The notes under the pieces were generated by a model. That model was not told the DNA's origin. It saw only the letters and a list, made by a program, of their open reading frames with translations, and made no database searches. Both the position numbers and the translations under genes were made by a program. Shown one piece after another: positions 10,441-27,840 of a stretch of DNA of 64,000 bases. The stretch covers positions 1-64,000 of the forward strand of contig JAPEUI010000041.1 in NCBI GenBank assembly GCA_026025075.1, read 5' to 3'. The DNA is from Vezdaea acicularis. Its lineage: Eukaryota. How positions within the stretch are numbered: position 1 is the stretch's first letter; every line of letters starts with the position of its first letter.

Positions 10441-11455
10441 ATGAACGTGAGCCCACCATTCGATTATTGCCCTACGCGGCCGGAGCATATTGAAACCATT
10501 CTCAATGGTCTAGACAGATACAATCCTGAGACAACATCCACATTTCAGGACTACGTACAATCTCAATGTGAGGAGAAAACGTATGACTGCTATGCGAATC
10601 TGGCGCTTTTGAAGCTGTAAGTGAATTTTCATTCTCTTTTATTCGACCCCAGAGGAAAGTACTGCAATCTAAGGATGATCACATTTTAACGTTTCCTATT
10701 ACCTGACTCGAGCGGGAGCATGAATCCTCCCGCTTGCTGAAGCTACGATATTAGCTCTATCTGATAGCAATAGTTTTGGGACCTCGTCATGAGCTTCTAT
10801 GTATTTACATGATAGCTTACTAACATTTCTCTGCGTTGGCTAGGTACCAATTCAACCCACATCTCTCCCGTGACGAGACAATAACGAACATCCTCGTGAA
10901 GTCATTGACGGTCTTTCCGTCTCCAGATTTCAGCCTTTCACTCCACCTACTCCCACCATCGTCCCTCTCACCCGCCTCTGCTCTGCCCACTGCCGGCGAC
11001 GCACCCCTTTCTCTAGCTGTTTCTCATCTTAGCACTCTATCCGCCCTCCTGAACGCCGCCAATTATGCTCAATTTTGGAGCACCCTTGATAGCGACGATC
11101 TATATGCGGATCTGATCGCGGATGTTAACGGCTTCGAGGAGTTGATTAGGGTAAGGATTGCGGTCCAGGTCAGCCAGGCTATAAGAGAGGTCGACAAGGG
11201 CGTTCTTCAAAGCTGGTTCAATCTACAAGGCAGGGAGTTTGGAAAATTTGTCGAGGAGGTCTGTGGCTGGGCTATTGAGGGCGACGTTGTGAAGATCCCC
11301 TTGAATAAGGAGAATGAGGCACGGGGAACCGTTGTGCGAGAGAATGTGAAGTTTGATCGTAAGTTCTGCCTTCCCTTGGTCCCCTTCGTGACCATTGCTC
11401 ACCTGCGGCAGAGTTCTCAAGAATGATCAAACGTGCCTATGAACAGCCAGCGTGA
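10441..11455 (+). CDS. eIF3k: Eukaryotic translation initiation factor 3 subunit K
   Basis: [61 protein letters not shown]; introns 10617-10843 and ~11359-11411. Confidence 0.95.
10670..10768 (+). ncRNA. Intronic box C/D snoRNA, dual guide (3' guide SNORD44/U44-like)
   Basis: Inside the unusually long (227 nt) eIF3k intron 1: C-like box ATGATCA 10675-10681, D' CTGA 10703-10706, 10-bp internal stem 10709-10718/10727-10736, D CTGA 10761-10764; guides complementary to conserved SSU (UAGAGCUAAUA) and LSU (UAAUAGGGAACGU) rRNA sequences. Confidence 0.85.
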
Positions 11456-12231
11456 TATTAGAGGAACAGAAGATTTGGTGAGAGCTCGTTTTATAGGGGT
11501 AAGAGCTTAAGGCGGAGTTTTGGCGTGAGGTAACTCGGCATTATGGTGTTCAAATGAATCAGAAAAGCAATCCAAGTCACATAGCATCAAACTTACGCCA
11601 AGTCTCTATTGCAAGTGTGGAATTGTTTCTTATCGTACGAACTAACCTTTTCACTATCTGTGAATTGAACAGTGGATTTGAAGCTGGTCATGTTGATATG
11701 ATCTTGCCAACTTCATCCCGCTCCTGCTAAGCCTGCCAGCCCTCTACCAGTCATAGCCTCTCCTGAGCTTTTCGCAGTGCTCGATGAGAATGTAGCATAT
11801 ACCACATAACAGTTTCTTGCGCTGCCGACAAGTTGAGGGCAAGGATATCCAGCTCGTTTCATCGCTAGTCCCCTGGGTATAAGTCGTCGTCTCATCATAA
11901 GCCAAGGGCACGCTTATTAGCAGACAGGGGGTTAACATTCAGACTGCCACTGGTCACACCTATAACAGCACCTTGCATGGTAGCATAAAGAGGCAGCCAT
12001 GCCCTTCCAGTTCGTCATTCTCTCTTTCCCGAGAGCCGACCGCCAGATGAGTGCTCGCCCAGCTCGTCCACTCTACTTTGGTGTGTCGATATCGATGAAC
12101 ACGCCCGCTGCAGTCACATAAATGCAAACCTGCAGCCCGACCCTGAAAGGAAAGGCTTTAACGGAGGTTTGCCGCAGGCTAAGAAGCAAAACCTGCCTTC
12201 ACCGATGTAGAGGCTCATTGCATAGCCTTTC

Positions 12232-27318: not shown

Positions 27319-27840
27319 AGCAGTTGAGGAACTTAAGTTATGTATTCCATGAAATATACTAGTTACTCTCAATATGCGCCTATGCGATAATAATCCTATA
27401 AAGCGACCATCCATCAAAGCGAACTCGTGTACCGAGGGACCGGGCGAGCGTGCCAGACCTCGGCACCTTTGAAACCCATTCGTAGGGCTGACATCGCGAC
27501 AATTCGAACGTGTGTTGTAAAATACTGATGTGAAGCGGGACCAATTTTAAAAATCCGAGAGATGGAGCAAAAGATAGTGTAGGCATGCGCCTAAGGGTAT
27601 TTCCAAAGATTGTGAAATGGAGTATTTTGGGCATAGCCACGGCCATCTCTGGTAAAAGGCAAGAAATGGATTCTGAGCTAGCTTGTCCCACTCCAATTAA
27701 GCGAGCCGGCTTATAATTGTTAATAAATGCAATATTAATCGACTTACCCCTCCCTCCAGTTTGTGGCTCCCGCCCCGCGATCGATGTCATTGGAGAGATG
27801 GGTGAGGTAAATCTCTCTCAGTTCATAAACTATCTTCATA

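Follow-up and report, generated by a model that had tools for sequence, protein, structure and literature searches.

The eIF3k gene and its first intron

The window analysed here is a 64,000-nucleotide stretch of the Vezdaea acicularis assembly GCA_026025075.1 (contig JAPEUI010000041.1, positions 1 to 64,000), which carries the eIF3k gene at 10441-11456 on the forward strand. Exon 2 of this gene matches PF10075 (E 4e-29), and eIF3k is the protein found in five of five PDB matches; the closest named relatives are filamentous-ascomycete eIF3k proteins, at 80% for Vezdaea and approximately 70% for Leotiomycete, Dothideomycete and lichen-forming species. An earlier note on this DNA had remarked that intron 1 is long in comparison to the 45−60 nt of most introns; this agrees with the length of intron 2 and with a rough splice-signal scan of the window, in which an excess over shuffles is seen only at 40−59 nt (21 versus 9.3). 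Intron 1 hosts the elements of a box C/D snoRNA (Table 1). The D box was said to lie about 55 nt upstream of ACTAAC, close to the distance found here to the branch adenosine; among the matches listed, the distance from D box to branch A has a median of 61 nt in the 35 of 37 related introns that have a branch motif. A fixed D-box-to-branch spacing of this order may serve splicing-coupled snoRNP assembly.

Two database models of eIF3k (P0181 and P0233) start within intron 1 and translate the snoRNA as protein; the presence of the snoRNA accounts for these mis-called gene models. Elsewhere in the window, at 27584-27696 on the reverse strand, lies a gene for U5 spliceosomal RNA (74 bits, Rfam).

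Table 1. Features of the eIF3k gene and of the snoRNA within its first intron (window coordinates)
Feature	Position	Strand	Remarks
eIF3k exon 1	10441..10616	+	58 codons + 2 nt; relatives named translation initiation factor 3 subunit K
eIF3k intron 1, snoRNA host	10617..10843	+	227 nt
C box AGGATGA (G for U at position 2)	10672..10678	+	Aligns with RTGATGA of orthologs
D' guide	10689..10701	+	13 bp (one G.U) to LSU rRNA; +5 position is yeast-numbered U2935
D' box CTGA	10703..10706	+	Same register in 32/32 cluster representatives (among the matches listed)
D'-C' hairpin	10709..10736	+	10-bp stem 10709-10718/10727-10736, one G.U; 8-nt loop 10719-10726 with UGAAUC
Putative C' box	10737..10743	+	Core TGAAG at 10738-10742; core identity 0.93 in orthologous introns
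D guide	10749..10759	+	11 bp, perfect, to 18S rRNA; +5 position is Neurospora A161 / Arabidopsis A162 / human A166
D box CTGA	10761..10764	+	Near 3' end of snoRNA
Branch site ACTAAC	10819..10824	+	Branch A 10823, 59 nt past D-box end
eIF3k exon 2	10844..11358	+	PF10075 and PDB eIF3k
eIF3k intron 2	11359..11411	+	53 nt
eIF3k exon 3	11412..11456	+	Ends at about the stop codon

Anatomy of the snoRNA

Intron 1 of eIF3k almost certainly carries a genuine box C/D snoRNA. The element has a C box with the GAUG core, a D box, internal D' and C' boxes, and two rRNA guides of at least 10 bp upstream of D and D'; the earlier note had the positions right for both of its CTGA boxes (10703 and 10761), for the two guides and for the 10-bp hairpin. 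Its C box was misread as ATGATCA, which would lose the pairing partner of the D-box C, a G; orthologous introns fix the other register, with AGGATGA three bases upstream. The GAUG core is intact in AGGATGA, and at the aligned place 28 of 33 introns have TGATGA, three AGATGA and two GGATGA, among the matches listed. The D' box is CTGA in 24 and CCGA in eight of the 32 cluster representatives among the matches listed. A third CTGA, at 10737, was absent from the earlier feature list and belongs to the conserved segment that is assigned as C' box from its position and GA core. The D guide together with the D box has its sole exact match in the genome here, and the snoRNA element is single-copy.

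A search against Rfam, which had been proposed as a check, returned only U5 at gathering score in the window and no snoRNA family at the eIF3k intron. The folding of the element is likewise not significant alone (z −1.79, 11 of 200 shuffles). Both results would suit a reading in which there is no separate RNA, the motifs being a cis element of the eIF3k pre-mRNA or a product of chance; this is scarcely credible, however, as the four boxes and two rRNA guides persist in introns whose spacers and stems have diverged, homologs (L096 and L097) lie outside eIF3k in an apparently non-coding snoRNA cluster, and the Neurospora relative CD32 was cloned as a small RNA (PMC2780460). It is the conservation that is decisive for regarding the snoRNA as real.

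Conservation in related eIF3k introns

Metagenomes were scanned with a pattern composed of the C core, D guide and D box only, the D' guide being absent from the query; the pattern recovers only introns bearing the RNA, and it yielded at least 117 matches at a minimum of 114 loci. At least 48 of these loci are eIF3k genes with the RNA in the same intron, forming 37 clusters at 85% identity among the matches listed; within the same matches both splice sites fall at the window's codon in 46 of 48 loci, contig ends truncate the remaining two, and the host introns measure 181−298 nt. The D' guide at the 48 loci, again among the matches listed, is of the exact class in 35, a variant in two, another guide in five and none recognised in six, meaning that it is replaced or damaged in 11; the LSU-type D' guide occurs in 32 of the 37 clusters.

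An alignment of intron 1 across relatives, as the earlier note had called for, was built from the matches listed and comprises 33 introns: that of the window, 31 others bearing the guide and one in which the guide is damaged. Four clusters with other D' regions and one incomplete locus were left out. It bears out the expected conservation: among these matches, identity to the window over the 32 other introns averages 0.98 in the D' guide, 0.94 in the D' box, 0.93 in the C' core and 0.76 in the loop hexamer, versus 0.33−0.35 in the stem arms and 0.25−0.28 in the flanks; a value of 1.0 for D guide and D box follows by construction, as both are in the scan query. Departures from the D' guide in the 32 representatives among the matches listed are C to U at position 13 (three), U to C at position 9 (one) and C to U at positions 7 and 8 together (one); every change at positions 7−14 retains pairing with the LSU site, while positions 1−6 are invariant by class definition.

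A sample gathered by exon-1 similarity, and hence independent of the DNA pattern, contains 120 proteins, 42 of which run at least 20 aa into the intron; 24 of the 42, among them P0089 from Endocarpon pusillum, spell the D' guide in one of three frames. The fraction of 24 in 42 is a floor, because the C box stops many frames. Placement of guide-bearing loci by tblastn puts L039 at 95% to Cadophora (Leotiomycete) and L044 at 95% to Parastagonospora (Dothideomycete), with other loci at about 80% to lichen-fungus proteins; the named protein set holds no Sordariomycete or Eurotiales members, and many loci are therefore unplaced.

Several copies depart from the common form. L008, L020, L028, L030 and L077, all in eIF3k introns, have the D' guide swapped for one that could form about 9 bp with 18S immediately 3' of the D site, which would predict another uridine, four nt past U167. 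The D' guide is damaged or lost in L016, L052, L047, L081 and L105; L081 and L105 retain the hairpin loop and sit in an intron whose host was not identified as eIF3k. A distant eIF3k (L045, L050, L066 and L103; approximately 35% to named ascomycete proteins) has the D guide and D box at the same intron position and no LSU guide in that intron, which suggests that the host intron is older than the sampled group.

Predicted rRNA targets

The rRNA of Vezdaea acicularis was not found in its own assembly in a stricter first-look search, and pairing was therefore tested on rDNA from public collections; two complete rDNA units (L145 and L146) from unassigned eukaryotes, with a fungus-like helix 91, served as the stand-in target. 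The bacterial/archaeal genome collection contains at least 39 eukaryotic LSU rDNA stretches (L117-L155), most likely contamination.

The earlier note had paired the D guide with conserved 18S sequence, and the D' guide, with one G.U, with LSU sequence just 3' of the A-loop; both pairings hold as the best sites in L145 and L146. For the D guide this is an 18S site of 11 bp without wobble (next best 9; −14.3 kcal/mol), and for the D' guide an LSU site of 13 bp with one G.U (next best 9; −17.2 kcal/mol). The arithmetic of the +5 rule was also correct for the 18S adenosine and the LSU uridine; with the A-loop uridine as numbering anchor (yeast U2921 = Arabidopsis U2922 = C. thermophilum U2880), the D' +5 position is yeast U2935 = Arabidopsis U2936 = C. 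thermophilum U2894. The D guide very likely directs 2'-O-methylation of 18S rRNA at the Neurospora A161/Arabidopsis A162/human A166 site, and the D' guide probably directs that of the LSU uridine at yeast-numbered U2935. To our knowledge, Um2935 is absent from the rRNA 2'-O-methylations of S. cerevisiae. The equivalent uridine, U2936, is unmethylated in the Arabidopsis RiboMeth-seq data, no 26S-2893 target appears in the available Neurospora table (PMC2780460), and no entry with the predicted targets is found in the C/D table of PMC3890542 as accessible. The novelty of the sites was overrated in the earlier note: the 18S site is an existing prediction for Neurospora (Am161), Arabidopsis Am162 is its one measured form in the literature consulted, and snoR18 of plants already joins it to the adjacent LSU nucleotide.

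Position 9 of the D' guide, where the wobble forms, is U in 31 of 32 representatives among the matches listed although C would pair better; simple pairing does not explain this invariant G.U. Three U likewise precede the C run in the plant consensus, and the position-9 U may thus be inherited. Its constancy among the matches listed would also be accounted for by a different and perfectly complementary target, with A rather than G opposite position 9, but such a target is very unlikely: rDNA offers no better site, all fungus-like LSU copies have G there, no perfect RNA target explaining the U was found in the assembly or rDNA, and the assembly has the exact 11-mer at just three further places, none of them in an Rfam family at gathering score.

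There is little likelihood that the D' guide instead methylates A2934, the plant site, by means of a slipped or bulged register in place of the +5 rule. Plant snoR18 (RF00359) does target that adenosine by a very similar guide at the same D' position; however, the stretch from the shared core to the D' box is one nt shorter in the eIF3k-intron guide than in the plant consensus, in 32 of 32 representatives among the matches listed, there is no alternative D' box, and a slip would break the perfect 3' pairing.

The D'-C' hairpin loop

The motif UGAAYC is present in 25 of 33 introns (UGAAUC in 21, UGAACC in four), and in 23 of the 25 it is inside the hairpin loop predicted from single-sequence folds despite rewritten stems, all among the matches listed. 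Both forms are able to pair with LSU GUUCA (yeast 2922−2926), the U/C change facing G, and GUUCA ends five nt before the D' target; it is conceivable, if somewhat short of probable, that the loop adds five bp to the A-loop just 5' of the D' target. Against such pairing, a 5-bp match is found in 3−13% of 26-nt rDNA windows, UGAAYC is missing in eight of the 33 introns among the matches listed, and L096 and L097 keep the loop though their D' guide points at 18S. RNAalifold gave no consensus pairs on a 25-sequence alignment chosen for hairpin-bearing members, because the stems vary in length and misalign; support for the hairpin comes from single-sequence folds and not from counted covariation.

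The loop bears on a further reading, in which the snoRNA is real and methylates 18S while the D' guide and loop only hold or unfold helix 92 and the A-loop in 60S assembly, leaving U2935 unmethylated. The invariant G.U, the long 13-bp guide and a loop aimed at the A-loop would fit this role, and methylation of the U2935 equivalent was not found in the Neurospora and Arabidopsis tables as available or in a literature search by site name. It is considered improbable all the same: the D' and C' boxes and their register are strictly kept, as for an active methylation site, and in plants the corresponding guide does lead to methylation at the base of helix 92.

Proposed mechanism and significance

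With good but not full confidence, the element is taken to be an intron-encoded double-guide C/D snoRNA with both sites methylated, that in the LSU at U2935. A snoRNA of approximately 95−100 nt would be co-transcribed with eIF3k and, following the standard pathway, released by splicing, then debranched and trimmed to the protein-protected C/D core, with Snu13, Nop56, Nop58 and Nop1 presumably binding the C/D and C'/D' motifs. The D guide would then present to Nop1 for 2'-O-methylation the 18S adenosine common to the targets of U44, snoR18 and CD32; the D' guide is predicted to pair at the base of LSU helix 92 and to lead to methylation of U2935, one nt 3' of the adenosine of snoR18, with the hairpin loop perhaps contributing its five bp to the A-loop.

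No description of an eIF3k-hosted snoRNA or of Um2935 was found in the literature searched, mostly non-subscription; the features considered new, none of them found in print, are the eIF3k host, the D' register shifted by one nt to U2935 and the conserved UGAAYC loop. The snoRNA fills a gap, in that a guide of U44/snoR18 type, whose reported fungal range was limited to Sordariales, appears to be widespread in eIF3k introns, where Rfam misses it; the nearest named proteins of those eIF3k genes are Dothideomycete, Leotiomycete and lichen-forming ascomycete eIF3k. It also predicts an rRNA methylation beside the A-loop that would not appear in yeast-centred maps, and gives a small system in which the sliding of a guide register and the switching of targets can be tested.

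Comparison with known guide RNAs

Conserved D'-C' sequences complementary to rRNA beside the target are also found in yeast snR70, snR75 and snR76, with 4−11 bp (van Nues et al. 2011, PMC3116282), and in yeast such loops boost methylation up to five-fold; unlike these RNAs, the eIF3k-intron RNA has other targets, and its pairing is only predicted and of 5 bp.

The end of the D guide had been likened in the earlier note to human SNORD44/U44, and the 18S site is indeed the same, Am166 being equivalent to Arabidopsis Am162 (Table 1 of PMC3511168 and Table 1 of PMC2780460). The SNORD44 model (RF00287) has 61 positions, and the tables of these two papers, as available, give it no LSU guide; searched on the genome with a 40-bit criterion, it leaves the locus unreported even at E 10, with four weak matches elsewhere (16−18 bits). 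Among weak Rfam matches, RF01509 Afu_300 (16.8 bits, E 1.3) was rejected as generic, as its guides differ and a plant copy also scores 17.1 bits, and nqrA-II was likewise rejected as generic.

A known parallel for the pair of targets is plant snoR18/SnoR77.1 (RF00359 snoZ102_R77, clan CL00060), which has the same D guide and D box and a D' guide on the same LSU stretch, the 3' strand of helix 92. In Arabidopsis, SnoR18/SnoR77.1 guides 18S A162 and 25S A2935, with RiboMeth-seq scores of 0.94−0.97; pairing of an SSU with an LSU target is thus already known, one nt away. The difference lies in the D' +5 position, which is an adenosine in snoR18 (Arabidopsis A2935) and the next U in the eIF3k-intron RNA, and in the genomic setting, as the plant copies sit in tandem arrays and not in eIF3k. 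Of the scan matches outside eIF3k, 19 are plant-type, 31 have an snR38-type D' guide, two are CD32-type and 17 are other or chance, among the matches listed. RF00359 recognises five of five plant-type loci (L011, L035, L064, L076 and L090; 72−96 bits) and has no match at the 40-bit criterion in the window or genome, while 15 other scan loci submitted to Rfam gave no snoRNA match. Under a sequence-only fungal profile, built from the 25-sequence hairpin-bearing alignment, held-out eIF3k copies whose D' region is of LSU type reach 38−80 bits and plant copies 14−18 bits, mostly over the D guide, with probable chance matches reaching 21; outside the D guide this profile gives no similarity between plant and fungal copies. 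What speaks for a common origin with the plant D' guide is the likeness in targets and layout, which could be convergent. The 31 matches with the snR38-type D' guide (e.g., L004, L010, L012, L017, L080 and L108, among the matches listed) have the same D guide and come from unassigned eukaryotes; eight of them gave no match in Rfam, and L110 shows an apparent paralog lacking the snR38-type guide beside a separate snR38-like RNA.

In fungi the relative is Neurospora CD32, an intronic double guide cloned from cDNA and listed by Liu et al. 2009 (PMC2780460) as a homolog of U44 and snoR18 with no counterpart in either yeast; its D guide is predicted there to direct 18S Am161. The CD_32 family is reported only in Sordariales by Canzler et al. 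2018 (PMC5824354), as far as the excerpt extends. In the published CD32 sequence the final 16 nt, made up of D guide and D box, match the eIF3k-intron RNA exactly and the GGAUGA form of the C box is shared, as are five end letters of the D' guide and its distance to the D' box; the guide middles differ, and CD32 targets 18S U167 where the eIF3k-intron RNA targets the LSU. A separate guide for 18S U167 was sought in the genome and not found; the seven exact matches to the CD32 D' guide lie in no evident snoRNA context. L096 and L097 combine a CD32-type D' guide (18S U167) with the UGAAUC loop in an apparently non-coding, multi-intron host that is not eIF3k, where a further C/D snoRNA, with a D guide like that of Neurospora CD20, lies upstream of them; the fungal profile matches both end to end (30 bits, E 4e-8 and 8e-8), the Neurospora sequence itself being compared by eye only. 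These likenesses support kinship of the eIF3k-intron RNA with CD32-type RNAs. The D'-C' hairpin of CD32, whose D' guide is on 18S, has seven letters complementary to the LSU A-loop, a post hoc observation that may be chance. The claim of a dual-guide C/D snoRNA related to U44 is supported by the conservation in orthologous introns, the 16-nt identity to CD32 and the unique best rDNA pairing of both guides.

A broader history can be drawn, which is unlikely to be right in all its parts together: an ancestor of plants and fungi would have had a double guide for 18S A162 and the base of LSU helix 92, in filamentous ascomycetes this RNA would have entered eIF3k intron 1, slid its D' register by one nt to give an unreported, subphylum-wide Um2935 beside the peptidyl-transferase A-loop and gained a loop gripping the A-loop (G2922-A2926), and some lineages would have redirected the D' guide to 18S. 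If true, the loop could time A-loop folding or the methylation of Um2921/Gm2922, and in this family nature would have run an experiment on the switching of targets and on their sliding by one nucleotide. Set beside the known systems, the snoRNA is a correct but fairly ordinary find that brings no new mechanism; it is a fungal variant of the line that includes U44, snoR18 and CD32.
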